32,000 nucleotides of DNA from Geotalea daltonii FRC-32 (GTDB lineage Bacteria; Desulfobacterota; Desulfuromonadia; Geobacterales; Geobacteraceae). Positions 724 to 29,253 of this stretch are shown piece after piece. The position numbers and the translations under genes were made by a program. How positions within the stretch are numbered: position 1 is the first letter of the stretch; every line of letters starts with the position of its first letter. The notes below the pieces were generated by a model. The model was not told the origin of the DNA, made no database searches, and saw only the letters and a program-made list of their open reading frames with translations. The stretch is from NCBI RefSeq assembly GCF_000022265.1, contig NC_011979.1, positions 3,570,001 through 3,602,000 of the forward strand, given 5' to 3'.

Positions 724-731
724 AAGGAACC

Positions 732-1868: not shown

Positions 1869-2974
1869 AAGGTTTTTCCATCGCATTTTTCGGGTCGAGC
1901 CTGGTCTCTTCCTACTGGAACGGAGCAGCCACCTATTACCGTGGCCTGATCTGCGCCCTCCATGCACGGGGCCACAGGGTAACTTTTTACGAGCCGGATG
2001 CCTTTGATCGGCAGCAGCACCGGGACATGGAAGATCCCCCCTGGGCGAAGGTACAGGTTTATTCGGCGACAGAGGAAGGTGTCTTTCGCTCTCTTGAAGC
2101 GGCCATGGGGGCAGATATAGTCGTCAAGGCCAGCGGCGTCGGGGTATTTGACGAGCTCCTGGAGAAAGAGGTGCTCTCCCTGAAGACGGCCGATAACAAA
2201 GTCGTTTTCTGGGATGTGGATGCCCCGGCAACCCTGGAGCGGATCAGTCACAATCCCCACGATCCTTTCCGCAGCCTCATTCCCGGCTATGACCTGATCC
2301 TCACCTATGGCGGCGGCGATCCCGTAGTTGACGGCTATGGCTCTTTCGGCGCCAGGGAATGCATCCCGGTCTACAACGCACTTGACCCGGACACCCATCA
2401 CCCGGTCCCCTCCGACCATCGTTTCTGTGCCGATCTGGCCTTTTTGGGCAATCGCCTCCCGGACCGGGAAAAACGGGTGGAGGAATTCTTTCTCAGAACC
2501 GCCGCCAGCCTTCCCCACAAAAGGTTTCTCCTGGCAGGAAGCGGCTGGGACGACAAACAGCGACCACGAAATGTGGACTACCTGGGGCATTTGGGGACGG
2601 CCAGTCACAACGCCTTCAACTGCAGCCCGCTGGCTGTTCTCAACATCAGCCGGGAAAGCATGGCGAAGAACGGCTTTTCACCCGCCACCAGGGTCTTCGA
2701 GGCGGCCGGTGCGGGAACATGCATCATCACCGACAGCTGGCAGGGGATCGAGCAGTTCTTTGAGCCGGGCAAGGAAATACTGGTAGCCGGCTCGGGGGAA
2801 GAAGTTGCGGATATTCTGGAACGCCTGACCCCCAGGGAAGCATCCATGGTCGGCCTGCATGCCTTCGCCAGGGTCCGGGCCGAGCATACCTATGCCCACC
2901 GGGCCAGGCAGGTGGAAGCCATTTTTATGGAAGAAGAATCGAGCATGGGCTCATATGCAGGAGGGGCAGCATGA
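1865..2974 (+). CDS. CgeB/YkvP-like glycosyltransferase, paralog 2 of 3
   Basis: ATGA start/stop overlap with the upstream gene (1865-1868). FFGSSLVSSYWNGAATYYRGL and NISRESMAKNGFSPATRVFEAAGAG...WQGIEQFFEPGKEIL are closely parallel to ORF 2971-4086. Confidence 0.8.
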   Translation: MKGFSIAFFGSSLVSSYWNGAATYYRGLICALHARGHRVTFYEPDAFDRQQHRDMEDPPWAKVQVYSATEEGVFRSLEAAMGADIVVKASGVGVFDELLEKEVLSLKTADNKVVFWDVDAPATLERISHNPHDPFRSLIPGYDLILTYGGGDPVVDGYGSFGARECIPVYNALDPDTHHPVPSDHRFCADLAFLGNRLPDREKRVEEFFLRTAASLPHKRFLLAGSGWDDKQRPRNVDYLGHLGTASHNAFNCSPLAVLNISRESMAKNGFSPATRVFEAAGAGTCIITDSWQGIEQFFEPGKEILVAGSGEEVADILERLTPREASMVGLHAFARVRAEHTYAHRARQVEAIFMEEESSMGSYAGGAA

Positions 2975-4086
2975 AAATAGTCATTTTCGGTCTTTCAATA
3001 ACATCCTCATGGGGAAACGGCCATGCCACAACCTATCGGGGGCTGGTGCGGGAACTGGCAAAGCTCGGCCATGAGATACTGTTCCTGGAGCGGGACGTGC
3101 CGTGGTACGCAACGAGCCGGGATCTCCCCTCCCCCCCCTATTGCCGGACGGTGCTCTATAACTCGGTGGATCTGCTCCTGAGTGACTACGGACGAGAGAT
3201 CATCGAAGCCGACTGTGTCATCGTCGGCTCCTATGTGCCGGACGGCATCGAAATCGGCAGATGGGTGACACGCAAGGCCAAGGGCATCACCGCCTTCTAT
3301 GACATCGACACGCCGGTGACCCTGGCAAAACTGGAACGGGGGGACTGTGAATACCTCAACCCCGAACTGATACCCATCTACCGTCTCTACCTTTCCTTTA
3401 CCGGCGGGCAGATCCTGGAGCGCATCAGGGAACAGTATGGGGCACGGGAAGCAGTGCCGCTCTATTGCTCGGTGGACCCGGAGGTTCATTACCCCATGCA
3501 GCAGCCTGCCAGATGGGACCTGGGCTACCTGGGCACCTACAGCACCGATCGTCAGTCCCCCCTGGAGCGCATGCTCTGCGAAACCGCCAACCTTTGGAAA
3601 GAAGGACGTTTCGTCGTCGCCGGCGCCCAGTATCCGGCGGGAATCGCCTGGCCGGACAACATGAAACACATCGAGCATCTCCCCCCGGAGCAGCATCGGG
3701 ATTTCTATAGTGCCCAGCGTTTTACCCTCAATATCACCAGAAAATACATGATCCAGGCAGGCTATTCCCCCAGCGTCCGCCTGTTCGAGGCGGCTGCCTG
3801 CGCCGTGCCGGTCATCAGCGACCAGTGGCCCGGCATCGAGGAGTTTTTCATCCCCGGCGAGGAGATCCTTTTGGCCTCCACAGCCGAAGAGGTACTGGGT
3901 TATCTGCGGGAGTTGTCCGATGAGGACCGTCAGGCCATGGGCCAGCGGGCTCGCAAGAGGGTGCTCCGGTCACACACCGCCGGACGCAGGGCGACCGAAC
4001 TTTTAAACTACATCGCCGGCTGTGAACAATTCAGAAGTAAACTTCCTTTATCAGGTGGTACCCATTATGGACTATGCCGATTCTGA
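2971..4086 (+). CDS. CgeB/YkvP-like glycosyltransferase, paralog 3 of 3
   Basis: ATGA overlap at 2971-2974. IFGLSITSSWGNGHATTYRGL and NITRKYMIQAGYSPSVRLFEAAACAVPVISDQWPGIEEFFIPGEEIL match paralog 2. Confidence 0.8.
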   Translation: MKIVIFGLSITSSWGNGHATTYRGLVRELAKLGHEILFLERDVPWYATSRDLPSPPYCRTVLYNSVDLLLSDYGREIIEADCVIVGSYVPDGIEIGRWVTRKAKGITAFYDIDTPVTLAKLERGDCEYLNPELIPIYRLYLSFTGGQILERIREQYGAREAVPLYCSVDPEVHYPMQQPARWDLGYLGTYSTDRQSPLERMLCETANLWKEGRFVVAGAQYPAGIAWPDNMKHIEHLPPEQHRDFYSAQRFTLNITRKYMIQAGYSPSVRLFEAAACAVPVISDQWPGIEEFFIPGEEILLASTAEEVLGYLRELSDEDRQAMGQRARKRVLRSHTAGRRATELLNYIAGCEQFRSKLPLSGGTHYGLCRF

Positions 4087-7150: not shown

Positions 7151-7207
7151 ACTTGACTTATAAGAAGCATTAAATTAATTTCTGCACATGGCACGTATCG
7201 CTCGCGT
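7028..7207 (+). repeat. Perfect 90-bp tandem duplication covering the REP copy, promoter and first 20 nt of the RAYT CDS
   Basis: 7028-7117 is identical to 7118-7207 (90/90 by eye). Confidence 0.95.
7153..7181 (+). promoter_or_regulatory. Putative sigma70 promoter of the RAYT gene (near-leaderless)
   Basis: TTGACT (7153-7158), a 17-nt spacer, then TAATTT (7176-7181). The ATG lies 7 nt downstream with no visible RBS. The same module is duplicated at 7063-7091. Confidence 0.4.
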
Positions 7208-7850
7208 AATAGCAACCGGCATCCCTCACCATGTTACTCAACGTGGCAATCGGCGATTGACAACCTTCTTCGGAGATGAGGACTACCAGAGCTATATTGA
7301 TCTCATGGCCGAATGGTGCCGGAAGTGTGGTGTGGAAATATGGGCATACTGTCTGATGCCTAATCATGTGCATCTTATCGCCGTGCCGGAGAGTGAAGAC
7401 GGGTTGCGGAGAGGGATTGGAGAAGCACACAGGCGATATAGTCGGATGGTTAACTTCCGGCAAGATTGGCGAGGGCATCTCTGGCAAGGAAGATTTGCCT
7501 CCTTTCCGATGGATGAATCCTATCTTTTAGCAGCGGCCCGATATGTAGAAATGAATCCAGTACGAGCCCACCTTGTACCGGAACCGGAATTATGGCCCTG
7601 GAGCAGCGCACGAGCGCATATGGCGGGCGCAGATGATCAATTGGTAAAGGTGGCCCCGCTTCTGGAGATGGTTGGGGATTGGAAACTTTTTCTTAGTGCA
7701 GCAACTGATGAAGAGATGGAAAAGATAAGACGCCACGAGCGAACCGGCAGACCTTTGGGTTCAGACGGTTTTGTAAATCAACTGGAGTCGGCCCTGGACC
7801 GCATGCTGACGCGCGGAAAGCCAGGCCCAAGGGGCAGGAGAATTAAGTAA
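7188..7850 (+). CDS. REP-associated tyrosine transposase (RAYT, IS200-like Y1/HUH, COG1943-type)
   Basis: GIPHHVTQRGNRR, HUH motif LMPNHVHLI, GHLWQGRF, and the catalytic Tyr block ARYVEMNPVRA..WPWSS. The gene is flanked by inverted repeats. Confidence 0.85.
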   Translation: MARIARVIATGIPHHVTQRGNRRLTTFFGDEDYQSYIDLMAEWCRKCGVEIWAYCLMPNHVHLIAVPESEDGLRRGIGEAHRRYSRMVNFRQDWRGHLWQGRFASFPMDESYLLAAARYVEMNPVRAHLVPEPELWPWSSARAHMAGADDQLVKVAPLLEMVGDWKLFLSAATDEEMEKIRRHERTGRPLGSDGFVNQLESALDRMLTRGKPGPRGRRIK

Positions 7851-10306: not shown

Positions 10307-11053
10307 ATGGACATCCCCCGGATATTCAACATCACCGAAAGTGCTCACCGCATCCATAACCCGTTCACACCCGAAAAACTCGCCACTCTCGGCGCGGCGC
10401 TGCGTCTGGAAACGGGGACCCGCGTGCTCGACCTCGGCAGCGGTTCGGGGGAGATGCTGTGCACCTGGGCACGCGATCACGGCGTCATCGGCACCGGCAT
10501 CGACATGAGCCAGTTGTTCACCGAGCAAGCGAAACTCCGTGCTGTAGAACTCGGCGTAACCGAACAAGTCAAGTTCATCCATGGCGATGCTACAGGCTAC
10601 GTCTCCGACGACAAGGCCGGTGTGGCAGCCTGTGTCGGTGCCACTTGGATCGCCGGGGGAGTCGCCGGCACTATCGAGCTTCTGGCGCGGAGCCTGCGCA
10701 CCGGAGGGATCATCCTCATCGGCGAGCCCTACTGGCGGCAGTTACCGCCGACGGAAGATGTCGCCAAGGGGTGTCTTGCCAACTCAATCTCCGATTTTCT
10801 CATGCTTCCAGAACTTCTCGCGTCTTTCGGCCACCTTGGCTGCGACGTAGTTGAAATGGTTCTGGCTGACCAAGACGGCTGGGACAGATACGAGGCGGCC
10901 AAATGGCTCACCATGCGCCGATGGCTTGAAGCCAATCCCGACGACGAGTTGGCACAAGATGTTCGAGCCAAACTGACCTCGGAACCCGAGCGCTACGCCG
11001 CTTACACGCGTGAATACCTGGGCTGGGGTGTGTTCGCGCTGATGCCGCGGTGA
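10307..11053 (+). CDS. Class I SAM-dependent methyltransferase
   Basis: Motif I VLDLGSGSGEM; GIDMS; IHGDA; GGIILIGEP. RBS AAGGAG lies upstream. Confidence 0.8.
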   Translation: MDIPRIFNITESAHRIHNPFTPEKLATLGAALRLETGTRVLDLGSGSGEMLCTWARDHGVIGTGIDMSQLFTEQAKLRAVELGVTEQVKFIHGDATGYVSDDKAGVAACVGATWIAGGVAGTIELLARSLRTGGIILIGEPYWRQLPPTEDVAKGCLANSISDFLMLPELLASFGHLGCDVVEMVLADQDGWDRYEAAKWLTMRRWLEANPDDELAQDVRAKLTSEPERYAAYTREYLGWGVFALMPR

Positions 11054-11139
11054 TGCGTTGGCGCATCCGGCGGATCGTCAACGGGTGCGGCGCAACAGCT
11101 GGTGGCTCGCCGAGATGTGAGTGAGCCTAGAAACAATGA

Positions 11140-11266
11140 AAGTTTGGTTTCACGTTCTTCCAGAAGCCGTAACCCGGCCCGGATCGCCTCGCTTGCGGCC
11201 TGCGTCGCCGCGCCTTGCCGGGAACCCAAATCCCTCGAAATCTTGCAGAGAACATTGCGTTGTCAT
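11140..11266 (-). pseudogene. parD-like (RHH) antitoxin remnant, frameshifted and C-terminally degraded
   Basis: The minus strand reads MTTQCSLQDFEGF in one frame. After an apparent 1-nt shift near 11225-11230 it reads GSRQGAATQAASEAIRAGLRLLEERETKL, the hallmark ParD helix. No parE partner is present. Confidence 0.5.
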
Positions 11267-11707
11267 CCCCGCAATCCACTCATTAGCAGAAAATAACACT
11301 CAGAGCTCCCCGCCACACAAAACAATCAACATCTTATTTTAAAAGGCTTTAAGCCTGTTGAGCTGCCAATCCATGCACGCTCTGCGTGTGTTTCTTTGGG
11401 GTAAATGCACGTTTTGCATAGTAGCAATTTATGAATACTTTGTTATGGTCTTTTTCGTCCGGATTTAATTAATGCAGTAAAACGTGCCAGTTGCGCAGCA
11501 TTACCATGGAGCAACAGAGGTGTCAGTCTATTTCCTTGATCATTACATCGGCCTCCAATTCTGACTCTTCAAGTCCTCTTACTTCATCCAGCCATGCCAT
11601 GACCGCGCAGCAGGGACCAGGCATTCCGCACCCACTAGCCGCACACTTCTGTTTCGCACGACATAAACCTGCTACCTATAGGTATTCACAGCAAAGGGAG
11701 GCTGTCC

Positions 11708-12772
11708 ATGCGTAAAAAAGTTTTGTTCAGAACCGGCTTGTTCGCCCTCAGCCTGCTCATGGTGATCCAGTTCACCTCGGGCACCCCCGGTGGAGCCACC
11801 AAAGCCGCACCGTGGAAGTTTGCCGTTCTCTGCGACAATCGCAGCAACCCCTGTGTACCCGGGGGTGGCGTTCAAGGGGTGAATGTGGAGGTGCTTGGCA
11901 AGATGGCTGCGGAGGTGGCTGCGGAAAAGGTGGATGTGGTGCTTGTGCCGGGGGACATTGCCCTGGGCAACGGCTATACCTGTACGCCGCCGACACCACC
12001 CCCCAATCCCGCCGATCAGCAGTACCAGCTCTGGCGGCAGACCATGAAGCCGGTCTACGACTCGGGTGCAAAGGTCTTGCCGGTCCGGGGCAACCACGAG
12101 ATGGACAAGGACGCAGTCTTGAGCGACTGGAGCAGCTGTCGCAAGCGGGTACCCATCGAATCGAAGCTGTTGGACGCCTACCGGTCCGTATTCAACGATC
12201 CATACCTGAAGAAAATCAGCCCCGATAGCCAAAAGGGCCTGACCTATGCCCTGCCCCACAAGAATGCCCTGTTCATCGGTTTCGACCAGATCACCGATCA
12301 GTTCCAGGTGGACCAGAAATGGTTCGACCGGGTCCTGGCCAAGAACAAGCGGGAACATCTGTTCGTCTTCGGCCACTATCCCGCCTTTGCAGTGAAGCAT
12401 AAAGACTGCCTGGCCTGCTATGGAGCGGCGCGGGATCGCTTCTGGAATGCCATCGGCAATGCCGGCGGCCGTCTCTACTTCTGCGGCCATGACCATTTCT
12501 ACGACCGGGCGATTATCCCGGACGCCAAAGGACGCCTGCTCCAACAGGTGCTGGTGGGTAACGGCGGCGCACCATTCGCTTCAACCACCGCACCCTATGC
12601 CGATCCCCGAGTCGAACCCGCCGAGCACATCGAAAATGCCTATGGCTATATGGTGGTAACGGTGGACGGGGACAGCGTCTCGGCAAAGCTGAAGGTGCTG
12701 GATCTCCCATCGGGAACGTGGCGGAACGCCGATGCCTTCTGCTACGCCCAGCGGCGCACTGCCGGAAAATAG
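11708..12772 (+). CDS. Exported calcineurin-like metallophosphoesterase
   Basis: Signal peptide MRKKVLFRTGLFALSLLMV. Motifs VPGDIALGN, VRGNHE, FGHYP, CGHDHFYDR. RBS AGGGAGG. Confidence 0.8.
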   Translation: MRKKVLFRTGLFALSLLMVIQFTSGTPGGATKAAPWKFAVLCDNRSNPCVPGGGVQGVNVEVLGKMAAEVAAEKVDVVLVPGDIALGNGYTCTPPTPPPNPADQQYQLWRQTMKPVYDSGAKVLPVRGNHEMDKDAVLSDWSSCRKRVPIESKLLDAYRSVFNDPYLKKISPDSQKGLTYALPHKNALFIGFDQITDQFQVDQKWFDRVLAKNKREHLFVFGHYPAFAVKHKDCLACYGAARDRFWNAIGNAGGRLYFCGHDHFYDRAIIPDAKGRLLQQVLVGNGGAPFASTTAPYADPRVEPAEHIENAYGYMVVTVDGDSVSAKLKVLDLPSGTWRNADAFCYAQRRTAGK

Positions 12773-12781
12773 CCCGCTGAT

Positions 12782-13696
12782 ATGACGCCGGTTTCCATCA
12801 GATATTTCGCCATCGAATGGCTTTCCAAACACGACGGCCCAGGGGCACGGGTCGTCGTCTTCCTCCAGGGCTGTCACTTTGCCTGCCCCTGGTGCCATTC
12901 GCCACACTCCAGCTTCGAATGGTCGCCGATCCTCTTCTTCAAGAACCTCTGCCTCTCCTGCAACCGCTGTCAGGAGGTCTGCCCCGAAGGATTGCGAGGG
13001 GCGCTGCCCACGAAAACCGCCGATATCAGCGCCCGTTGCCGCCGCTGCGGCGCCTGCGTGGTTGCCTGCCCCGCCTCCCGTCCGGGTGGGATGGCCAGTG
13101 CTCTGGTCTTGCCGACCCAGGAGGCCACGCCGGAGACGCTGTTCGCGACGATCCAGCCGCAGCTGGAAATGGTGCGCAAAATCGGTGGGCTGACCCTGAG
13201 TGGCGGCGAGGCCCTTCTCCAGGGAGAGGCGGTAGCCCACCTGCTCCGGCTGGCCCGCGATGCCGGCTTCCATACCACCGTGGAAACGTCCGGGCTCCTG
13301 CCCCTGGCGTGTTACCAGTCGATCGCTGCGCTCGTGGATTGCTGGCTGTTCGGTCTCCGCTCCGACATCCCCGGAGCAAAGGCCGCCGACCGTTTCGGGA
13401 TGCGGGGCAGCAACCTGCATTACCTTGCGTCCCTGCCGTCGCGTATCGTCGTCAGGAAACCGCTGGTGGCAGGTTATACCGACACTGAAGAGGAAATAGA
13501 GGTCACCATCGACGTCATGAAAGAATGCGGCGTCAGCGAAATCCAGCTGCTCCCCCTCAATCCCCATTCCGGCCATTATTACAGTGCTTTGGGACTGTCG
13601 TGTCCCGAAGCCACCAGAGCTACGCCGACGGCCGCAGCCGTCGCCACTGCCGTCAATCGTTTCACCGCATCGGGTTTTACGGTAACCGTCGGATAA
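12782..13696 (+). CDS. Glycyl-radical enzyme activating enzyme (radical SAM, two auxiliary ferredoxin-like clusters)
   Basis: CX3CX2C (GCHFACPWCHSP); CLSCNRCQEVCP and CRRCGACVVACP; SGGEALLQ. It begins 9 nt after the upstream gene. Confidence 0.9.
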   Translation: MTPVSIRYFAIEWLSKHDGPGARVVVFLQGCHFACPWCHSPHSSFEWSPILFFKNLCLSCNRCQEVCPEGLRGALPTKTADISARCRRCGACVVACPASRPGGMASALVLPTQEATPETLFATIQPQLEMVRKIGGLTLSGGEALLQGEAVAHLLRLARDAGFHTTVETSGLLPLACYQSIAALVDCWLFGLRSDIPGAKAADRFGMRGSNLHYLASLPSRIVVRKPLVAGYTDTEEEIEVTIDVMKECGVSEIQLLPLNPHSGHYYSALGLSCPEATRATPTAAAVATAVNRFTASGFTVTVG

Positions 13697-13733
13697 TCAA
13701 TAGTAATCGAGATGAAATAAAAGGAGATTCTGC

Positions 13734-16295
13734 ATGGAAAGAGCACTTCCCGTAGCAATGACCCCGAGAACCAAAGCCCTGCTTGAGGCGCTGAAGCGGC
13801 AGGGGCGGAAGAACCGGGCGGATGAGTGGTTCCGCAACAGCATGTTTCCCGATGTCGGCAAGGAATTTCCCCAGGAGCCGGTGATCGTCCGCACCGCCCT
13901 GGCCAGCGAGGCCATGCTGTGCGCCATGACCGACGAGCGCAATTCGCTCCATACCGGCACCTATGCCATCGCCGATGGTGAGCTGATCGTCGGTGTCCTC
14001 CCCATGGGCTCCAACGGCCTGGGCAAGGTTTTTCCCAATTACCTGACTGAGGACGAAAAGCGTGCCGCGCGGATCACCAATCGGACCGAACTGTCGCTCC
14101 TGGGACATAACACTGCCGATTACGACCGGCTGGTGCGCTACGGCATCCGCGGCATTCTGGAGACCTGCGAGAGCAAGAGTGCGGAAATCAAGGCCAAGCA
14201 GCCGCTTACCGAGGACGATCAGAACAAGCTCGATTTCTACCGGGCCGTGCGCATTGCCAGCGAGGCCGTGGTCGAGTATGCCGGCCGCTTCGCCGACCTG
14301 GCCCGGGATAAGGGGCGAACGGAGAGCGATCTCCGCCGACGGGCCGAACTGGCCGAGATTGAGCGGATCTGCCGCAAAGTGCCCCTGGAGCCTGCCGACA
14401 CCTTCCACGAGGCGCTGCAGAGCATCTGGTTCGTCCACACTGCCCTCCACGCCAGCATGAATCTCATCTCCCTCGGCCGGCTCGATCAGGTGCTGGCCCC
14501 CTACCTGGCGAGCACAGTCGAAAAAGGTGTGTACGACCCGGCCAAGGGGGTGGAACTGTTCGAGTGTTTCCTGATCAAGGCGGCGTGGCGGCTCAACTAC
14601 ACCACCGAATACCTGGTGCAGCAGGACCACATGGACTACAACGCCGCCCTGGGCGTCAACCCCTATTATCTGGACCAGCGGGCCGGCGCCAACAACTTCC
14701 TGCAGAACGTCATCATCGGCGGACTGAAGCCCGATGGCAGCGATGCCACCAACGACTGCACCTTCGTCATCCTTCGGGCCTACCGCAACGTCAACCTTCC
14801 TACCCCCGGCATCTATGTCCGCATGGGCAGCTCTTCGCCGGAGAACCTCAAGTTTGCCGTGGCAGAATCGCTCCACGAGACAGGAAACAACCCGTCGATC
14901 CTCAACGACGATGTCCTCATCCCCGCTCTGTACCGGGCCTTCTGCGAAGGGGAAGACCCGACCGACCGGGCACGCCTGGCCGAACTTAAGGCCGTGGTCA
15001 ACGACTACTGCGTGGACGGCTGCTGGGAACCGATCCTGAACGGCAAGAGCGACTGGACCTTCGGCATGATCAACGGTATGACCATCCTGGAGTGCTCCCT
15101 CAATAAGGGGGCGACCCTGGACAACAACCCCGGCACCCTCCGCGGCGGCAAGCTGAGCTACTCCTCCGGCGAGATCGCCAGTTATGGAGCGCTGCGGGAA
15201 TCCCTGCGCGGCCACCTGCAGTTCTTCGTCGATCAGTCCGCCTTCGGCCTCTACAAGTACTACATGACCGACGAGTACGTGGTCCCCTGCCCGCTCTTTT
15301 CCGCCTTCCTAGGCACCTGCCTGGAGCGGGGACGGGACAAAGCCTGGGGCGGCGCCGAGTACAACATCGGCGGCACCATCCTCACCGGTGTACCGAACAT
15401 GGTCAACACCGTCTGCGCCATGAAAAAATGGGTCTTCGACGAGGGCAAGTACCACCTTGACGACGTGCTGGAGGCGTTCCGCAACAACTTCGTCTCGCCC
15501 CAGACCACCAACCCGGCGTCCCAGCGCACCTACGACGCCATCCGGGTCGACTTTGCCACCAATAGCCCGCTCTTCGGCTCCAATCATCCCGAAGCCAACG
15601 CAGTCACCCGCTGGATCCTGGATGACTATTTCGATGCGGTGATGAGTTCCAAGTCCATGGCCGACCGAATCTTCCTCAAGAAGCCTGCGACGACCGAAGA
15701 AGAGCGCGAGGTAAAGCGGCTGCGTTACATTGCCGGCTACTTCGGCGAATCGTTCCAGGAAAAATTCGGCCCCCAGTTCAATATCAAGTTCACCGCCGGC
15801 TGCGGCACCTTCGAGCAGTATCCCCTCCAGGGAGCCGGCATTGCCGCCTCTGCCGACCGCGCCGCGGCAGCACCGCTGGCCCCCAACTTCACTCCCCCTC
15901 CCGGTACGCAGATAAATGGTATCGGCAACCTGCTCGCCTCGTTCAGCGGCCTCGGTCTCGACCGGTTAGGCGCGGGGGTCATCACCGACCTCTGCCTCGA
16001 CCAAAGCCAGAATGACCCGGAGGTGATCCGGGGGATCATGGAGCAGTTCATCGCCAACAAGGGGAATATGATGACCCTGGCCATCGGCAACAGCGCCGTC
16101 TACCAGACAATCTACGAACTTTCCTGGGCTGCGTCAAAGATGTCGGACCAGACGGAGGCGGTGCGCAAGCTTGAGGAATATTCCGCCATCAACGTCCGGG
16201 TCGGTGGTTGGCAAGCCCCCTTCATCACCATGTCACTGGACCAGCAGGAAAACTACATCAACCGCCCGGTTACAGCCGGGGGAGGTGCCCGATGA
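13734..16295 (+). CDS. Glycyl radical enzyme, PFL2/1,2-eliminase-like, substrate unknown
   Basis: 853 aa. The Gly-radical loop is NVRVGGW (Gly825, codon 16206-16208). The Cys loop DGCWEP (Cys430-x-Glu432, codon 15021) resembles dehydratase/lyase GREs. RBS AAAGGAG. Confidence 0.9.
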   Translation: MERALPVAMTPRTKALLEALKRQGRKNRADEWFRNSMFPDVGKEFPQEPVIVRTALASEAMLCAMTDERNSLHTGTYAIADGELIVGVLPMGSNGLGKVFPNYLTEDEKRAARITNRTELSLLGHNTADYDRLVRYGIRGILETCESKSAEIKAKQPLTEDDQNKLDFYRAVRIASEAVVEYAGRFADLARDKGRTESDLRRRAELAEIERICRKVPLEPADTFHEALQSIWFVHTALHASMNLISLGRLDQVLAPYLASTVEKGVYDPAKGVELFECFLIKAAWRLNYTTEYLVQQDHMDYNAALGVNPYYLDQRAGANNFLQNVIIGGLKPDGSDATNDCTFVILRAYRNVNLPTPGIYVRMGSSSPENLKFAVAESLHETGNNPSILNDDVLIPALYRAFCEGEDPTDRARLAELKAVVNDYCVDGCWEPILNGKSDWTFGMINGMTILECSLNKGATLDNNPGTLRGGKLSYSSGEIASYGALRESLRGHLQFFVDQSAFGLYKYYMTDEYVVPCPLFSAFLGTCLERGRDKAWGGAEYNIGGTILTGVPNMVNTVCAMKKWVFDEGKYHLDDVLEAFRNNFVSPQTTNPASQRTYDAIRVDFATNSPLFGSNHPEANAVTRWILDDYFDAVMSSKSMADRIFLKKPATTEEEREVKRLRYIAGYFGESFQEKFGPQFNIKFTAGCGTFEQYPLQGAGIAASADRAAAAPLAPNFTPPPGTQINGIGNLLASFSGLGLDRLGAGVITDLCLDQSQNDPEVIRGIMEQFIANKGNMMTLAIGNSAVYQTIYELSWAASKMSDQTEAVRKLEEYSAINVRVGGWQAPFITMSLDQQENYINRPVTAGGGAR

Positions 16296-18217
16296 GCAAA
16301 GGTTATATGGGACGCATTCTCTGGGTCGATCTAAGCAAGGGAACCTTTCACACCGAGCACCTTGACGATGCCCTCTACGAGCAGTTCCTCGGCGGCTACG
16401 GCCTGGCGGCGAAGGTCATCTTCGACCGGCAGAAGCCGAGGCTGTCCGCCTTTCACCCGGACAACATCCTGGCCATGATGAGCGGGCTCTTGACCAACGG
16501 CCGGGCCATCTTCAACGGGCGGTGGATGCTGGCCGGCAAGAGCCCGTTAACCGGGACCTGGGGCGATGCCAACTGTGGCGGCGACCTGGCTCCGGCCATT
16601 AAAGAAAGCGGCTTCGACGGCATCTTTTTTATCGGCAAGAGCGAGAAACCGGTCTATCTGCTGATCGACGGGAAGAAGATGGAGTTGCGGGATGCCTCGG
16701 CGCTCTGGGGAATACTGGATGCGGTCGAGACCGAAAATCGCCTCAGGGCGGTACATGGCGACGATTTCCGGGCCGCCTGCATCGGCGCGGGAGGCGAACG
16801 GCGCTCGCTGATCGCCGGTGTCGTCAACGGCAAGGGACGGCTTGCAGCCCGCAGCGGTCTGGGTGCCCTGATGGGCTCGAAGAACCTGAAGGCGGTCTGT
16901 CTCAGGGGAGACCACCAGACCGGCTGCCATGACGAGGCTGCGGTCTGGCAGCATACCACCCAGTTTCTCACTAGCCTGGAAACCGACCTCAACGATTTCG
17001 GCAAGAAGATGAAGCAGGCCGGTACTGCCGGCACCCTCACCGATTCCACCACCTCGGGGGACTCGCCGCTCCTGAACTGGCAGGGGGTACCGGCGGATTT
17101 CCCGGCGGAAAAGGCCAACAAGATCGATCTCTTCTCCGTCACCCGGTATGAAACCCGCAAATACCATTGCTACGGCTGCCCCTTCGGCTGCGGCGGTCTC
17201 TGCATGATCCCGGACGAACCACTGCTGAAGGAAACGCACCGCCCGGAGTACGAGACCATCTGCGGCTTCGGCGCCCAATTGCTCAACGACAACATCGAAA
17301 GCATCTTCATGGTCAACGAGCTCTTGAACCGGGCCGGCATCGACACCATCAGCTGCGCCACCACCGTCAACTGGGCCTTCGAGGCTTACGCCAAGGGCAT
17401 TCTGACGCAGGAAGACACCGACGGGCTGGAGCTTACCTGGGGCAACCATGGAGCGCTGGTCGCCCTGGTGCAGAAGATCGTCGCCGGCGAGGGGATCGGC
17501 GCCATCCTGGCCAACGGGGTAAAAAAGAGCGCCGAGCACTTCGGTGGCGAGGAGCTGGCGGCGCCCATGCACGTGCACGGCCAGGAACTGCCCATGCACG
17601 ATTCCCGCAGCACCAGCGGCGGGCTCGATCTCGGTGTGGGATACGAAACGGAACCGACCCCCGGCCGTCATACCGCCACCTTTGCCGGTTGGGACCAGTA
17701 CAAGCATTCTGACCATCCCAAGAACAGGCTGTTCGACAAGTTCCGCCTGAAGAGCCGCTATGAAAAGCCGGTCGATGACGACCACGAGAAACAGGGGGAA
17801 CGCCTGCGGGGGGCCAGCTGTGCGGAGGACATCATCAACGGGGCCGGGCTCTGCAACTTCGGCTTCTATCTGGGACCGGCGCCGCCGCTGGTGGAGTGGC
17901 TCAACGCCACTACCGGCTGGCGCAAGACCTTCGACGATTACCTGCTGGTCGGTCAGCGGATCAAGACCGTCCGTCATGCCTTCAATATCCGGGAAGGGCT
18001 GGAGGTTGCCGAGATCCGCATGCCCGAGCGGGCGCGGGGAAATCCTCCGCTTACCACCGGCCCCAACGCATACAGCGGCAATGTCCTGGCGTGGGATGAC
18101 GCGAAGAAGGACTACTACCGGGCCATGGGATGGGACGAAATCACCGGGCGTCCCTTACGGGAGACACTCCGGTCCCTGGAGCTGCCGGAAGTGGAAAAGG
18201 CCCTGTACGGGGAATGA
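16292..18217 (+). CDS. Aldehyde:ferredoxin oxidoreductase family (tungsto/molybdopterin) enzyme
   Basis: N-terminus MSKGYMGRILWVDLSKG..FLGGYGLAAK. 4Fe-4S motif CYGCPFGC. GAGLCNFG. ATG 16292 overlaps the GRE stop (ATGA). RBS GGGGGAGG. Confidence 0.9.
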   Translation: MSKGYMGRILWVDLSKGTFHTEHLDDALYEQFLGGYGLAAKVIFDRQKPRLSAFHPDNILAMMSGLLTNGRAIFNGRWMLAGKSPLTGTWGDANCGGDLAPAIKESGFDGIFFIGKSEKPVYLLIDGKKMELRDASALWGILDAVETENRLRAVHGDDFRAACIGAGGERRSLIAGVVNGKGRLAARSGLGALMGSKNLKAVCLRGDHQTGCHDEAAVWQHTTQFLTSLETDLNDFGKKMKQAGTAGTLTDSTTSGDSPLLNWQGVPADFPAEKANKIDLFSVTRYETRKYHCYGCPFGCGGLCMIPDEPLLKETHRPEYETICGFGAQLLNDNIESIFMVNELLNRAGIDTISCATTVNWAFEAYAKGILTQEDTDGLELTWGNHGALVALVQKIVAGEGIGAILANGVKKSAEHFGGEELAAPMHVHGQELPMHDSRSTSGGLDLGVGYETEPTPGRHTATFAGWDQYKHSDHPKNRLFDKFRLKSRYEKPVDDDHEKQGERLRGASCAEDIINGAGLCNFGFYLGPAPPLVEWLNATTGWRKTFDDYLLVGQRIKTVRHAFNIREGLEVAEIRMPERARGNPPLTTGPNAYSGNVLAWDDAKKDYYRAMGWDEITGRPLRETLRSLELPEVEKALYGE

Positions 18218-18426: not shown

Positions 18427-19293
18427 ATGACCAAAATTTTACTATTGGTCTTGCTGATCGCCCTAACCGTCCTTTGCCAGGGATGCGTCGGCAGGCTTTT
18501 CTACTACCCGGACAAAGAAACCTACGACACACCGGCTCGCCATGGTCTTCCCTTTGAGGAGGTCACCTTTGCCAGCAAGGATGGCACAAGACTTTCCGGC
18601 TGGTTCATTCCGGCAGTCGGCAAGCCCAAGGGCACGGTGATCCATTTCCACGGCAATGCCCAGAACATGACCGCCCATTTCGGCTTTGTCTCCTGGCTCC
18701 CTGCTGAAGGCTTCAACCTCTTTGTCTTCGATTACCGGGGCTACGGAAAGTCGGCGGGGCGCCCGAACCGGCAGGGGGTCTTTGAAGATTCCGTCGCAGC
18801 CATATCTTACATTGCCGCACGAAAGGACGTGGACCAAAACCGGCTCCTCATCCTTGGTCAGAGCCTTGGCGGCACCAACGCCATTGCTGCAGTGGGCATG
18901 AATCGCTTCACCGGCATCCGGGCCGTTGCCATCGAATCCACCTTTGCCTCCTATCGGGAAATCGTCCGGGACAAGATCGGAGAGATCCCTATAGTATCCC
19001 TTTTTAAATGGCCCCTCTCCTATCTCCTTGTCGGCAACAGTCACAGCGCCGATCAGGTGGTGGACAAGATCGCGCCCCTACCCCTCTTGCTCATTTACGG
19101 TGATGAAGATCCGATCATTCCATACCGTCACGGCAAGAAACTGTTCGAGAAGGCAAAGGAACCGAAACAATTCTGGACCATCAAGGGGGGCAGCCACACT
19201 GAGGCCTTCCTGGAGGCAGGCTCGCCATACCGGGCCAAGCTGGTCAGCTTCTTCCTCGAATCACTTGATGGCAAACTGAAAATCCCAAAGTGA
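18427..19293 (+). CDS. Alpha/beta hydrolase (S9/S33-like esterase), N-terminally anchored or exported
   Basis: Hydrophobic N-terminus; HFHGNAQN; nucleophile elbow GQSLGG; GDEDPIIP; GGSHTEAF. Confidence 0.85.
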   Translation: MTKILLLVLLIALTVLCQGCVGRLFYYPDKETYDTPARHGLPFEEVTFASKDGTRLSGWFIPAVGKPKGTVIHFHGNAQNMTAHFGFVSWLPAEGFNLFVFDYRGYGKSAGRPNRQGVFEDSVAAISYIAARKDVDQNRLLILGQSLGGTNAIAAVGMNRFTGIRAVAIESTFASYREIVRDKIGEIPIVSLFKWPLSYLLVGNSHSADQVVDKIAPLPLLLIYGDEDPIIPYRHGKKLFEKAKEPKQFWTIKGGSHTEAFLEAGSPYRAKLVSFFLESLDGKLKIPK

Positions 19294-22768: not shown

Positions 22769-22811
22769 CGTAGGGGCAATTCCGTAGGGGCAATTCATGA
22801 ATTGCCCCTAC
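22769..22811. repeat. GTAGGGGCAATTC half-site plus full palindrome (same REP-like family)
   Basis: CGTAGGGGCAATTC, then GTAGGGGCAATTC-ATG-AATTGCCCCTAC (22784-22811), in the pyrC-carA spacer. Confidence 0.85.
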
Positions 22812-22844
22812 ACATTAATACATACCAATTCAGGAGCATTAAAC

Positions 22845-23966
22845 ATGAAAGCAGTTTTGGCGCTCGCTGACGGGCGCATTTTCAAGGGCAGGTCTTTCGG
22901 CGCATCCGGTGAAGCTACCGGTGAGGTAGTCTTCAACACCGCCATGACCGGTTACCAGGAGGTCCTCACCGACCCATCATACAAGGGGCAGATGGTCACC
23001 ATGACCTATACCCAGATCGGCAATACCGGGATCAATGGAGAGGATATCGAGAGCAAACAGCTCTATCTTTCAGGGTTTATCGTCAAGGAATATCACGACT
23101 GCCACTCCAACTGGCGCGCCACCATGAGCCTGGATGCCTATCTCAAGGAAAACGGCATCGTCGGCATTCAGGGGCTGGATACACGAGCGTTGACACGCCA
23201 TCTGCGTGACAATGGCGCACAGAACGGCATCATCTCCACCGTCGATTTCGATCCTGAGAGTCTTGTAAAAAAAGCGCGTGCTATCCCCAGCATGGCCGGG
23301 CTCGATCTCGCCTCCGGCGTCAGCACCGACAAGCCTTACCACTGGACACAGGGGCTGTGGGATCTGGAAGGGGGATACCCTGAGGTTGATGCCAAGAACC
23401 TGAAATACAAAGTGGTAGCCTACGATTTCGGCATCAAGTACAACATTCTCCGTTGTCTGGTGGATGCAGGCTGCGATGTGACCGTGGTCCCTGCCACCTT
23501 CCCGGCGGAAGAGGCGTTGGCCATGAATCCGGATGGCATATTCCTCAGTAACGGCCCTGGCGATCCGGAGCCACTGGTCAAGGTCCAGGAAGAGATCAGA
23601 AAGTTCATCGGCAAGAAGCCCATTTTCGGCATCTGCCTGGGTCACCAGCTCCTTGGGCTTGCCCTTGGCGGCAAGACCATCAAGCTGAAATTCGGCAACC
23701 ACGGCTCCAATCTGCCGGTCATGGACATGGAGACAAGAAAGGTGGAGATCACCGCCCAGAACCACGGCTTTGCCGTCGATTTGGAATCGTTGGGTGATGT
23801 TGCTTGCCTGGGGCATGAGAACCTCAACGACCAGACGGTGGAAGGCATCCGCCACTGCACGCTGCCCATATACTCGGTGCAGCATCATCCGGAGGCATCG
23901 CCGGGGCCGCACGATTCACATTATCTGTTCGCGCGTTTTGTAGAGCTGATGGAGAAAAATCGGTAA
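22845..23966 (+). CDS. carA: Carbamoyl-phosphate synthase small (glutaminase) subunit
   Basis: ATG 22845 after AGGAG. MKAVLALADGRIFKG; GICLGHQLL (catalytic Cys); VQHHPEA. Confidence 0.95.
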   Translation: MKAVLALADGRIFKGRSFGASGEATGEVVFNTAMTGYQEVLTDPSYKGQMVTMTYTQIGNTGINGEDIESKQLYLSGFIVKEYHDCHSNWRATMSLDAYLKENGIVGIQGLDTRALTRHLRDNGAQNGIISTVDFDPESLVKKARAIPSMAGLDLASGVSTDKPYHWTQGLWDLEGGYPEVDAKNLKYKVVAYDFGIKYNILRCLVDAGCDVTVVPATFPAEEALAMNPDGIFLSNGPGDPEPLVKVQEEIRKFIGKKPIFGICLGHQLLGLALGGKTIKLKFGNHGSNLPVMDMETRKVEITAQNHGFAVDLESLGDVACLGHENLNDQTVEGIRHCTLPIYSVQHHPEASPGPHDSHYLFARFVELMEKNR

Positions 23967-24048
23967 CTGGTCGGCGGTGGATAGTCGACGGTAAAGCAGA
24001 TTGATGTTTTTTACCTTCCGACCATCGGCTGCCGACCGCCGACTGTTT

Positions 24049-24975
24049 ATGCGTTACATCGATCTTTATCAATCTGGAGAATTATTGCAGCGCATCCGTG
24101 CTGCTTATCAGCGACTGAAAAGCTGCGACCTCTGCCCCCACGACTGCCGGGTCAACCGGCTGGCAGGTGAGACGGGCATCTGCCGTAGCGGTGCTTTGCC
24201 GAAAATTGCCTCGGCTAACATCCATCGCGGCGAGGAACCGCCGATTTCAGGCTCGCGCGGTTCGGGAACGATCTTCTTTTCCAACTGCAACCTGTCGTGT
24301 CGCTTCTGCCAGAACTTCCCCATCAGTCAGTTCGGCAACGGAGAAGAGCTGAGCATAAGGCAGTTGGCGGAGAAGATGCTCAAGCTGCAACGGCAAAAGG
24401 CGCACAACATCAACCTGGTTACGCCGAGCCATTTTTTGCCCCAGTTTCTCGCTGCCCTCTTCATGGCCATCAAGGAAGGCTTCAATCTCCCCATCGTCTG
24501 GAATTCCAACGGCTACGAAAAGGTCGATGTGTTGCAGCTGCTGGACGAGATCGTAGATATTTACCTGCCAGACATGAAATACGCCGCCGATGAACCGGCC
24601 AGGGCACTTTCCGGCGCCCCAGCCTATCCAACCTTCAACAGGCTGGCCGTCCGGGAGATGCTGCGCCAGGTTGGGCAACTGCAGGTTGATGAAGAAGGTA
24701 TCGGTATTCGTGGGCTGATCGTCCGGCACCTGGTATTACCCGTAAATAAGGCTGGAAGCGATGAAACCTTGCCCTGGATTGCAAAACACCTGGGAGAGGC
24801 AACCCACGTGGCGCTGATGAGCCAGTATTTTCCGGCCCATTTGGCAAGAGCCACCCCAGGCATTGACCGGCCCCTGACTGCCGAGGAATACGATGCAGCG
24901 GTGGAAGCGCTGGAAGAGGCAGGACTTGAATCGGGCTGGGTACAGGAACTGGAACAGGAGCGCCGGCCGGTATGA
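24049..24975 (+). CDS. Radical SAM protein, PflX-like (COG1313 type)
   Basis: CDLCPHDCRVNRLAGETGIC; GSGTIFFSNCNLSCRFCQN (CX3CX2C); HNINLVTPSH; DIYLPDMKY. The start could be 24004 or 24049. Confidence 0.8.
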   Translation: MRYIDLYQSGELLQRIRAAYQRLKSCDLCPHDCRVNRLAGETGICRSGALPKIASANIHRGEEPPISGSRGSGTIFFSNCNLSCRFCQNFPISQFGNGEELSIRQLAEKMLKLQRQKAHNINLVTPSHFLPQFLAALFMAIKEGFNLPIVWNSNGYEKVDVLQLLDEIVDIYLPDMKYAADEPARALSGAPAYPTFNRLAVREMLRQVGQLQVDEEGIGIRGLIVRHLVLPVNKAGSDETLPWIAKHLGEATHVALMSQYFPAHLARATPGIDRPLTAEEYDAAVEALEEAGLESGWVQELEQERRPV

Positions 24976-25618: not shown

Positions 25619-25958
25619 TACATCTGTCTGGGTGGAGCATTTCCGCTCAGGCGCAGTCGGCCTTGAAACATTTCTGAATGACGGTCAGGTCATCTGCCAC
25701 CCCTTCATTATCGGTGAGCTGGCATGTGGGAATCTGAAGAACAGGACACAGATTCTTTCCCTTCTTCAGGACCTCCCCAAGGCTTTTTGTGCCGACGATG
25801 ACGAGGTGATCCGGTTCATCGACGACCATAAACTGATGGGTAAGGGCCTTGGCTACATCGATATCCATCTGCTAATGTCCGCCTTGCTCACACAGGTGCC
25901 CCTCTGGACCATGGACAAAAGGCTGCATGAGGTTTCGCTGTCGCTACTGCGCCACTGA
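25605..25958 (+). CDS. vapC: PIN-domain ribonuclease toxin VapC
   Basis: [35 protein letters not shown] (acidic PIN residues). Confidence 0.85.
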
Positions 25959-26010
25959 AGCTGCACAACAGTCTAACGTGACCCCTACTACACGAAGGAG
26001 TTTGGAATAC

Positions 26011-29253
<3,243 letters not shown>

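Follow-up and report, generated by a model that had tools for sequence, protein, structure and literature searches.

We analysed a window of 32,000 nt from Geotalea daltonii FRC-32, in which three plus-strand genes encode a glycyl radical enzyme (GRE)-activating radical SAM enzyme (12782–13696), a GRE (13734–16295), and a tungstopterin aldehyde:ferredoxin oxidoreductase (AOR; 16292–18217). The activase and GRE genes are spaced by 37 nt (13697–13733), and the GRE stop overlaps the AOR start by 4 nt (ATGA, 16292–16295), with a Shine-Dalgarno sequence (GGAGGTG) 5 nt ahead of the AOR start codon. An initial annotation of this DNA had described the same three genes, gap, and overlap, and all of its coordinates were verified, but the limits that it set for the unit (12782–18217) are too short. 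It overlooked a fourth co-directional gene (11708–12772), encoding an exported metallophosphoesterase (MPE), and only 9 nt separate this gene from the activase ATG. Non-coding stretches of 655 nt upstream and 209 nt downstream flank the four genes. Because of the spacings (9 nt, 37 nt, and the 4-nt overlap), these flanks, and the lack of any strong plus-strand terminator seen within the unit, we infer that 11708–18217 is co-transcribed as one operon of exported phosphoesterase, activase, GRE, and AOR. The upstream stretch (11053–11707, not assigned to a strand) is the presumed promoter and regulatory region. It holds no plus-strand ORF, no Rfam match, and no motif found conserved with the related loci L001, L002, or L004; it contains an AT-rich segment and a terminator-like hairpin (11373–11391) 3' of the preceding gene. 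No window ORF in the set scanned with Pfam, which included part of the short ORFs, matched an aldehyde-dehydrogenase or microcompartment-shell family, in keeping with the earlier statement that both are absent here.

The first gene product, the MPE (354 aa, Pfam Metallophos 9e-12), is purple-acid-phosphatase-like; it carries a signal peptide at its N terminus (MRKKVLFRTGLFALSLLMVIQFTSG) together with the motifs GD, GNHE, GH, and GHDH, and its PDB matches to purple acid phosphatases are weak. The activase (304 aa) scores 174.4 bits with TIGR02494 (cut-off 174.35) and reaches no equivalog. It has the motif CHFACPWC (CX3CX2C) and two auxiliary ferredoxin-like cluster motifs of the form CX2CX2CX3CP (CLSCNRCQEVCP and CRRCGACVVACP).

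The GRE (853 aa, GenBank ACM21601.1) matches the Pfam PFL-like family (PF02901, 5e-102) and has no match to Pfam Gly_radical (PF01228). Its Cys loop, D428-G-C430-W431-E432-P433 (15015–15032, plus strand), aligns with the GCVEP loop of glycerol dehydratase (GD), propanediol dehydratase (PD), and CutC, with C430 opposite GD C433 and the catalytic Cys of CutC. This DGCWEP loop is invariant in 42 diverse family members and 50 genome-derived members, and we refer to the family as C-W-E. The glycyl radical loop, V821-R-V-G-G825-W826 (16194–16211, plus strand), aligns with RVAGY/RVAGW of solved GREs, and V821, R822, G824, G825, and W826 are invariant in the 42 sequences. His125 (plus-strand codon at 14106–14108) is part of a G124-H125-N126 motif, also invariant in these sequences, which aligns with 162-vGH of GD and 164-vGH of PD; the profile-to-PDB alignment reads lGHntvnY in the GRE, vGHvsvDY in GD, and vGHvtvqY in PD, with His125 opposite GD His164 and PD His166. 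In the described catalytic residue roles of GD-type GREs, GD His164 is the general acid for the leaving group (PMC13450708).

The AF2 model of the protein has a confident GRE fold (pLDDT 86.3, pTM 0.89), in which the glycyl loop forms a beta-hairpin (820–823/826–829). Two invariant, family-specific loops (90–103 and 297–325) have pLDDT < 50 and may further influence the shape of the pocket. Foldseek matched the model to > 50 GRE chains with probability 1.00; the top matches PD, PFL2, GD, and CutC are roughly equidistant, with TM 0.65–0.75 and 16–22% identity among the matches listed. The barrel fold, Cys loop, RVxG glycine loop, and cognate radical-SAM activase place the protein in the PFL-like superfamily, and, given its conserved Cys and Gly loops, adjoining activase, and confident fold, the GRE looks functional. 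The family spans 56 species-level genomes, and its hosts are sediment Geobacteraceae, gut and termite Bacteroidales, rumen Fibrobacter, Clostridia, and Methanosarcinales. An activase homologue adjoins the GRE in every family locus with a long enough contig.

The GRE scores below the cut-off of every NCBIfam GRE equivalog, by a factor of at least 4, and reaches 263 against a cut-off of 678 with the broad PFL2-3 subfamily model. Eliminase models (HpfG, CutC, and HpsG) give 197–205 bits, and the eliminase equivalog score/cut-off pairs are 205/1000, 199/1050 (CutC, TIGR04394), 197/1000, and 164/1100. With equivalogs so far under cut-off and identity of at most 22% to the solved structures listed, membership of GD, PD, HpfG, HpsG, IslA/IseG, CutC, and HypD was rejected. 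The decarboxylase models are the weakest GRE matches (IAD, 141 against 1100; HPAD, 104 against 1150), and membership of HPAD, IAD, PAD, or AAD was rejected as well. The enzyme had been called an orphan GRE; it falls outside all NCBIfam equivalogs, is equidistant from PD, GD, PFL2, and CutC, and has only ~20–22% identity to solved GREs.

Active-site residues were mapped by HMM alignments at ~21% identity, in which gap placement near W441–F443 is uncertain. On this mapping, GD W445-H446-D447 aligns with W441-T442-F443 and GD Y339 with L323, and the counterparts of D447 and Y339 (F443 and L323) are invariant in the C-W-E family. G691 and F693 stand at the positions of PD Y694 and V696, and GD S282, which contacts glycerol, aligns with L244, a variable position in the family. 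An IslA-type Arg/Gln/Arg anion site is absent by position estimate (offset, not alignment), which puts IslA R678 on G691 and finds no Arg at the R189 position. Conservation of the substrate-binding residues of GD, PD, or IslA was thus rejected, these being replaced at the mapped positions. Val sits between Cys and Glu in GD, PD, CutC, and PFL2, and Trp is invariant there in the C-W-E family; W431 had already been noted as unlike known eliminases, rightly so for GD, PD, and CutC. The pocket substitutions suggest a substrate less polar than glycerol.

The same residues bear on whether the GRE performs known chemistry on a new scaffold, as a convergent glycerol, 1,2-propanediol, or ethylene-glycol dehydratase with glycerol phosphate or a similar compound as the phosphoester source. 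Its His/Cys/Glu triad is that of GD and PD, small neutral diols would not need a transporter, and a GRE ethanediol dehydratase together with AORs has been hypothesised in Pelobacter carbinolicus (PMC3543383). We consider such an enzyme unlikely, however, because GD D447, Y339, and S282 are all replaced, Trp431 stands where every diol dehydratase has Val, and the family loci show no linkage of the GRE to a 1,3-propanediol dehydrogenase or a glycerol facilitator.

C430-W-E432 conforms to the C-x-E motif of GRE 1,2-eliminases, and H125 to their GD His164-type general acid. The initial annotation had read Cys-x-Glu as the eliminase arrangement; the motif is indeed present, but it is not diagnostic of eliminases. 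It also occurs in isomerases (YbiW, PflD, and HplG) and decarboxylases (HPAD C503/E505; IAD E502) (PMC13450708), so an eliminase needs the motif, but the motif alone does not identify one. We favour an eliminase-type reading because C430, E432, and H125 match the GD and PD residues and because eliminases come out on top in both the sequence and the structure comparisons.

The motif would also suit a reversed order of steps, in which the AOR would make a carboxylic acid from an aldehyde and the GRE would then decarboxylate this acid by radical chemistry, like the arylacetate decarboxylases HPAD, PAD, and IAD, in which Cys-x-Glu is likewise present. Mapped pocket positions are aromatic or hydrophobic (W431, W441, F443, and F693), and G. 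daltonii degrades aromatic compounds; its oxidation of benzene is the subject of one paper. We nonetheless judge this order decidedly improbable: the decarboxylase models score lowest (141 and 104 bits versus 197–205 for eliminases), His125 stands opposite the general acid of the dehydratases, the genes run GRE then AOR, and the exported phosphoesterases would be left without explanation. Moreover, in the characterised p-cresol cluster the place of an AOR is taken by a 2-oxoacid:ferredoxin oxidoreductase (PMC13285125).

A radical isomerase or ring-opening lyase of the YbiW/PflD/HplG type would share both the C-x-E motif and identical first steps; it would form a ketone, leaving the AOR a later aldehyde as substrate, e.g., one arising after an aldolase step. 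PflD, YbiW, and HplG are structurally almost as near as the dehydratases (TM 0.71–0.75), and in a few loci of Bacteroidota and Clostridia the GRE has GH3 and GH92 glycosidase and SusC/D genes in its vicinity. Yet neither an aldolase nor a kinase is conserved beside the GRE among the family loci, the PflD equivalog gives a score of 165 where its cut-off is 1109, and the direct adjacency or overlap of GRE and AOR argues for consecutive steps, all of which make an isomerase or lyase an improbable assignment.

The AOR (641 aa) matches AFOR_N (8e-65) and AFOR_C (2e-93) over its full length and has the three Cys of the [4Fe-4S] ligand motif, C293-Y-G-C296-P-F-G-C300 (17168–17191, plus strand), which aligns with the AOR 9g7j. 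The closest solved structures are canonical AORs (9g7j, 2e-86; 1aor, 3e-81) and not FOR, WOR5, or BamB, and the sequence is 100% identical to a G. daltonii protein annotated as tungsten AOR. A tungsten bis-pterin cofactor and aldehyde oxidation are predicted from its sequence. The motifs listed in the initial annotation for the activase (CHFACPWC and two CX2CX2CX3CP), the GRE (VRVGGW and DGC430-W-E432-P), and the AOR (CYGCPFGC) were all recovered in the translations.

An orthologous AOR (55–84% identity) lies directly 3' of the GRE, in the same orientation, in 10 of 56 loci (L001–L004, L009, L013, L020, L033, L049, and L053), which span three phyla and come from Geobacteraceae, Bacteroidales, and one Methanosarcinales archaeon. 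The 4-nt overlap is limited to G. daltonii, and the gaps in relatives are tens of nt. In an independent look-up from the AOR side, three of six AOR relatives led to the C-W-E GRE family, with 62%, 57%, and 56% identity and the arrangements ACT-GRE-HAD-AOR, ACT-GRE-MPE-AOR, and ACT-GRE-Cupin-AOR. The checked members of this AOR subclade at ≥ 56% identity are thus physically linked to the family, a relative at 54% adjoins a different GRE, and relatives at 50–52% have no GRE nearby. At least 12 of the top AOR matches agree with a listed GRE match in the length of the longest contig, which indirectly suggests that the two lie on one contig. AOR relatives are also repeatedly paired with a gene of the YhhN family, which includes lysoplasmalogenases. 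The GRE-AOR adjacency proposed earlier as a test therefore extends beyond this genome but is not family-wide; as the AOR is missing from about four-fifths of family loci, it is an accessory and not an obligatory partner. The two outcomes that the initial annotation had named as refuting its reading, a GRE inside a characterised clade and an AOR adjacency restricted to this genome, were both checked and neither was observed, and that reading is partly supported.

In 33 of 57 loci the C-W-E family GRE is flanked by exported phosphoesterases, which belong to three or four unrelated folds and all have signal or lipoprotein N-termini. A HAD-like lipoprotein is encoded 0–133 nt 3' of the GRE in 19 loci; the other types are MPE (seven loci), a 5'-nucleotidase-like enzyme (six), and a PLD-like protein (three). 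MPE orthologues precede the activase-GRE pair in L001–L004, L049, and L053; in L058 the orthologue is placed between GRE and AOR. HAD and MPE are mutually exclusive and substitute for one another at the same module. Exported phosphoesterases are the commoner and more widespread partner of the GRE than the AOR, which alters the picture of the pathway. An exported phosphatase that supplies a cytoplasmic enzyme without a conserved transporter is an unusual arrangement, and the linkage could instead mean co-regulation, e.g., under phosphate stress. Our literature search found no GRE papers that describe a dedicated tungsten AOR or exported phosphoesterases as partners.

AOR and phosphoesterase could also be mere neighbours or general detoxification genes with no functional coupling to the GRE. 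Most family loci lack the AOR, the AOR relatives at 50–52% identity occur without a GRE, and MPE homologues below ~50% identity occupy unrelated gene contexts. Against this stand the same-strand, adjoining AOR orthologues in three phyla, archaea included, in several gene orders, and the interchange of HAD and MPE at one module. Genomes hold only few AOR genes, so coincidence is not a credible explanation for one lying within 1.2 kb in 10 of 56 loci, and we regard a complete lack of coupling as highly improbable.

Among known systems, GD (C. butyricum, 1R8W) and PD (R. inulinivorans, 5I2A/5I2G; 9RCO–9RCQ) have the same ten-stranded barrel (TM ~0.73–0.74), a catalytic Cys with Glu two residues on, H164/H166 opposite H125, an aligned RVxG loop, and a dedicated activase with two auxiliary clusters. 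Identity to them is only ~21–22%, however, and the C-W-E GRE differs in its Trp for Val, its own loops 90–103 and 297–325, and its lack of a PF01228 match. GD and PD are partnered by 1,3-propanediol dehydrogenase or by a microcompartment and CoA-acylating aldehyde dehydrogenase, whereas the C-W-E GRE is accompanied by AOR and exported phosphoesterases. CutC is the best sequence match among solved structures (9f3w, 2e-52) and has an aldehyde product; both enzymes carry the C-x-E motif, and beyond the Cys loop both have an aligned W-T pair (CutC W501-T502, GRE W441-T442), but the cut-cluster microcompartment genes are absent here and His125 is dehydratase-type. PFL2 of Archaeoglobus fulgidus (2F3O) has the highest TM among the leading matches (0.75/0.83) at 22% identity, with the Cys loop GCVE where the C-W-E family has GCWE, and we know of no AOR or phosphoesterase context for it. 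Its function is debated, it has no assigned substrate, and it is archaeal, as are members of the C-W-E family (PMC13450708).

The AOR aligns over its full length with Pyrococcus furiosus-type AORs (1AOR, 9G7J), shares both AFOR domains and the CxxCxxxC motif with them, and is ~35 residues longer than the solved canonical enzymes, which are stand-alone and broad-range, whereas it belongs to a GRE-linked subclade. Glycyl-radical-enzyme microcompartment (GRM) loci follow the same logic of a GRE eliminase whose aldehyde is consumed by a dedicated neighbouring enzyme. In contrast to these loci, there are no shell proteins, CoA-acylating aldehyde dehydrogenase, or phosphotransacylase here, and oxidation of the aldehyde would lead straight to the acid, ferredoxin taking the electrons. 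Neither BMC shell genes nor a CoA-acylating aldehyde dehydrogenase occurs in the window ORFs scanned or in the recurrent neighbour clusters of the 56 loci.

We propose, at about even chances, that the operon specifies a hitherto undescribed anaerobic pathway in which an alcohol derived from a phosphate ester is converted to an acid via phosphoesterase, GRE 1,2-elimination, and AOR. The spacing and order of the genes, the family assignments, the invariant motifs, and the repeated association with AOR and exported phosphoesterases are observed; the eliminase reaction, an aldehyde as its product, oxidation of this aldehyde by the AOR, and the succession of steps are inferred. Outside the cytoplasm, the purple-acid-phosphatase-like enzyme would strip phosphate from an organophosphate, a role that the HAD lipoprotein or 5'-nucleotidase-like enzyme would take in other lineages. 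The product would be a neutral or hydrophobic hydroxylated compound for which a dedicated transporter would be unnecessary. In the cytoplasm, the activase would put the radical on Gly825, and the Cys430 thiyl radical would take H from the carbinol carbon, while Glu432 would deprotonate the carbinol OH and His125 would protonate the vicinal leaving group. Such a radical 1,2-elimination, like that of glycerol and propanediol dehydratases, would give an aldehyde, which the tungsten AOR would oxidise directly to the acid with reduction of ferredoxin, without a CoA-acylating dehydrogenase or microcompartment.

More tentatively, the C-W-E family may carry out a novel radical elimination on a lipid- or head-group-derived alcohol freed by the exported phosphoesterases, in a new AOR-coupled pathway. 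Candidate examples are the anaerobic cleavage or dehydration of 1-O-alkyl(acyl)glycerol from ether or lyso-phospholipids and a B12-independent amino-alcohol ammonia-lyase. Hints of such a substrate may be seen in the hydrophobic residues that replace polar GD contacts while the catalytic triad is retained, in the PLD-like proteins 3' of the module in three loci, and in the YhhN pairing.

A 2026 review of GREs notes that whole clades, and all archaeal PFL-like GREs, are still without function (PMC13450708). The C-W-E family is one of these clades, with C-W-E in the Cys loop as its diagnostic feature. Since G. daltonii FRC-32 is a cultured isolate, the operon is directly testable there. If correct, the proposed route would be a second, ferredoxin-linked way of disposing of GRE aldehydes, without CoA, microcompartment, or substrate-level ATP, and would tie extracellular organophosphate hydrolysis to radical catabolism. 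Should the substrate prove to be a lipid-derived alcohol, turnover of organophosphates and membrane lipids would be coupled to ferredoxin reduction in both bacteria and methanogen-related archaea.

The glycyl-radical enzyme (GRE) of Geotalea daltonii FRC-32 is encoded in a unit of four co-directional genes on the forward strand. Three of these had been identified in the initial annotation: a GRE activase (12782–13696, 304 aa, ACM21600.1), the GRE (13734–16295, 853 aa, ACM21601.1), and a tungsten-type aldehyde:ferredoxin oxidoreductase (AOR; 16292–18217, 641 aa). Their coordinates, the 37-nt gap between activase and GRE, and the ATGA in which the AOR start overlaps the GRE stop were recovered exactly, and good Shine-Dalgarno sequences precede both the GRE and the AOR starts. 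The proposed extent of the unit (12782–18217) was too short: a gene for a calcineurin-like metallophosphoesterase (MPE; 11708–12772, 354 aa, ACM21599.1) stops 9 nt short of the activase and belongs to it too. The four genes are probably co-transcribed, and 655 nt of non-coding DNA lie upstream of the MPE gene. An alpha/beta-hydrolase gene (18427–19293), found beyond the AOR after a 209-nt gap and upstream of pyrR, pyrB, pyrC, carA, and carB, was rejected as a module member because its adjacency is not kept in relatives. As first described, microcompartment-shell and aldehyde-dehydrogenase families had no match among the window ORFs scanned.

Rfam searches of the window, and of the sequence preceding the module at 15 related loci, returned no riboswitch or other RNA, including the Moco/Tuco riboswitch reported before Pelobacter aor genes (PMC3543383). 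Aligned upstream regions of the Geobacteraceae operons share no conserved operator, promoter, or motif, matches to the sigma-54 consensus occur at chance level (34 versus 36 expected), and sigma-70 and terminator scans gave no decisive signal. The operon (window 12000–18000) has a GC content of 0.60–0.63, compared to ~0.56 in the neighbouring pyr/car genes and 0.39–0.52 in the 5–10 kb region, which contains an IS200-like Y1 transposase (7188–7850); the contrast with the flanks would fit a horizontally acquired module. The window also carries a radical SAM gene (324 aa, 24001–24975) between carA (22797–23966) and carB (25927–29253), and a cell-envelope glycan cluster (720–4086), in which three paralogous Glyco_trans_1_2 genes stand in tandem, accompanied by a GT1 gene and methyltransferases. 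Some Bacteroides loci (L027, L038, L054, and L057) likewise have glycosyltransferase and epimerase genes in the vicinity of the GRE module.

Pfam and NCBIfam back the family assignments of activase, GRE, and AOR, and all motifs initially quoted are present in the translations: CHFACPWC and two CX2CX2CX3CP motifs in the activase, DGC430-W-E432-P and VRVGG825W in the GRE, and C293YGC296PFGC300 in the AOR. Canonical AORs (9g7j, 1aor) are closer to the AOR than are FOR, WOR5, or BamB, and the MPE combines a clear signal peptide with metal motifs like those of purple acid phosphatases. The GRE had been called an orphan, and it indeed falls outside every characterised GRE enzyme family. It reaches no NCBIfam equivalog cut-off (score/cut-off: HpfG 205/1000, CutC 199/1050, HpsG 197/1000, PflD 165/1109, HypD 164/1100, IAD 141/1100, HPAD 104/1150), stays below that of the broad PFL2-3 subfamily model (263 versus 678), and does not match the Pfam Gly_radical model. 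Its best sequence match among solved structures is CutC (2e-52), and its confident AlphaFold model (pLDDT 86.3, pTM 0.89) is about equidistant from propanediol dehydratase (PD), Archaeoglobus fulgidus PFL2, glycerol dehydratase (GD), CutC, HypD, YbiW/PflD, and IslA (TM-scores 0.65–0.75, identity 16–22%). Relatives number in the hundreds in a large protein collection, and none of the best 120 (49–90% identity) carries an informative name. PFL-type formate-lyase function was ruled out because the Cys-Cys pair is absent. We refer to relatives with the DGCWEP Cys loop as the C-W-E family; the motifs D428-G-C-W-E-P433, G124-H-N126, and V821-R-x-G-G-W826 hold without exception across 42 diverse aligned members.

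Active-site residues were mapped by profile-to-PDB HMM alignments at ~21% identity, not from a 3D pocket. C430 and E432 take the positions of GD C433 and E435, and H125 that of GD His164 and PD His166; a 2026 review describes the GD His164-type residue as the acid donating a proton to the leaving hydroxyl (PMC13450708). Comparison of substrate-contacting residues, a check suggested at the outset, revealed that the specificity positions differ from both dehydratases: W441-T442-F443 aligns with GD W445-H446-D447, L323 with GD Y339, and G691 and F693 with PD Y694 and V696. Trp431, suspected at the outset to differ from known eliminases, stands where GD, PD, CutC, and PFL2 have Val, and the positions of the sulfonate-anchoring Arg/Gln/Arg of IslA are, by estimate, not basic in the GRE. 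Judged from these alignments, the GRE appears to keep the catalytic apparatus of dehydratase-type eliminases, in a pocket that looks new and less polar. A convergent small-diol dehydratase would share the aligned catalytic residues and would have to work with the altered specificity positions; we consider it improbable. The Cys-x-Glu (CXE) motif, initially read as the 1,2-eliminase arrangement, is found in eliminases and also in isomerases and decarboxylases (PMC13450708), so it alone cannot separate elimination from its rivals. An isomerase or ring-opening lyase would fit the motif and is unlikely. The same motif would suit a decarboxylase working after the AOR, to which the dehydratase-like residues lend still less probability. 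As a further caveat on the mapping, two GRE loops, 90–103 (PMGSNGLGKVFPNY) and 297–325 (QDHMDYN...DQR...NFLQN, inserted in comparison with GD and CutC), are family-invariant yet have pLDDT <50; they may gate the substrate or bind a partner.

An alignment-based search in which each species was represented by one genome yielded 56 loci of the GRE family. The activase adjoins the GRE in every locus where the contig allows. GRE–AOR adjacency, whose conservation was put forward initially as a check, is conserved in a subset: in 10 of the 56 loci the GRE is directly followed, on the same strand, by an AOR orthologue (55–84% identity, tblastn), namely in four Geobacteraceae/Pelobacteraceae MAGs (L001–L004), five Bacteroidales (L009, L013, L033, L049, L053), and one Methanosarcinales archaeon (L020). 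The 4-nt overlap occurs only in G. daltonii, the relatives having short gaps, and more distant AOR-family genes are nearby in L007, L025, and L048. Seen from the AOR side, relatives at 62%, 57%, and 56% identity, examined blind, sit in activase-GRE-HAD-AOR (HAD, a HAD-like lipoprotein), activase-GRE-MPE-AOR, and activase-GRE-Cupin_5-AOR arrangements, respectively, and, as an indirect sign of linkage, at least 12 of the closest AOR relatives have a longest contig equal in length to that of a listed GRE relative, which hints at a shared contig. The AOR-linked loci are spread over several clades of a neighbour-joining GRE tree. That the AOR and phosphoesterase genes lack functional coupling to the GRE could accommodate the many loci with no AOR orthologue, and is very improbable.

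GRE–AOR pairing extends beyond the C-W-E family, as a 54%-identity AOR lies directly upstream of a different, more canonical GRE and its activase in a Halanaerobiales MAG (L064:3945–9823). This GRE (GCVEL and RVSGY motifs, PF01228 match) is also unassigned, below all NCBIfam equivalog cut-offs; the same MAG also has a C-W-E GRE (L005). At 50–52% identity the GRE link is lost and the AOR is instead followed by a YhhN-family gene (PF07947) in two Firmicutes, Desulfosporosinus nitroreducens (L059:7001–9749, 52%) and Pseudobacteroides cellulosolvens (L065:6001–8773, 50%). The YhhN family includes lysoplasmalogenases, and its repeated pairing with the AOR suggests lipid-derived aldehydes as what this clade of AORs handles. 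Between GRE and AOR of the Methanosarcinales MAG are two small ORFs (L020:11905–12500; 130 and 68 aa) that jointly resemble the C-terminal glycyl-radical domain (RVRMGGW; BLASTP E 3e-7 to window GRE residues 749–846), and may be a GrcA-like spare-part protein for the C-W-E family or a decayed duplicate. A sub-family of long GREs (943–949 aa; L063:1–7950 and L058:3047–5878) combines the DGCWEP Cys loop with an RVGGF Gly loop. In L063, a Cupin_5 gene lies between GRE and AOR, and a tyrosine-decarboxylase-like PLP enzyme precedes the GRE, which might point to an amine or an amino alcohol as substrate.

Clustering of all neighbour ORFs revealed at least one phosphoesterase-type partner in 33 of 57 loci. 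The most frequent neighbour after the activase is a HAD-like protein of ~340 aa (PF12710), its DxDGT motif intact, whose gene lies 0–133 nt past the GRE in the same orientation in 19 loci. The MPE occurs in seven (including the window and, by tblastn, L003), a 5'-nucleotidase-like metallophosphatase in six, and PLD-like proteins, encoded after the module, in three (L002:14576–16204, L004:14468–16129, and L029:12474–15392, the last fused to a trypsin-like domain); by their domain, the PLD-like proteins would add a phosphodiesterase to the phosphoesterase theme. HAD and MPE co-occur in no locus, and all 19 HAD and all MPE partners have a signal or lipoprotein N-terminus. This swapping of exported phosphoesterase folds at one module makes a good case that the pathway includes hydrolysis of a phosphoester outside the cytoplasm. 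Dedication to the module does not extend to the whole MPE family, since homologues at 37–46% identity have unrelated gene contexts. Neither NCBIfam nor the PDB names a function for the HAD-like partner, whose only structural relative is the unannotated 4ovy, and the MPE partner likewise received no functional name. The conserved neighbour clusters include no transporter, regulator, kinase, aldolase, or alcohol dehydrogenase.

We propose that an exported phosphoesterase would free a neutral or hydrophobic alcohol, which the activated GRE would convert to an aldehyde by radical 1,2-elimination (Cys430 as thiyl, Glu432 as base, His125 as acid), and that the AOR would then take the aldehyde to the acid, reducing ferredoxin. 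We rate this complete scheme, with its steps in that order, at an even chance. The B12-independent diol dehydratases are the system most alike in working. A 2026 superfamily review lists no GRE with an AOR or phosphatase partner (PMC13450708), and full-text literature searches found no relevant report of either pairing or of the C-W-E family. The nearest printed idea is a genome-based suggestion that a Pelobacter GRE dehydrates ethanediol and AORs oxidise the acetaldehyde, although the GRE and AOR genes there are unlinked (PMC3543383). We class the C-W-E GREs as an eliminase-like family set apart by a new Cys loop and by its new pathway context.
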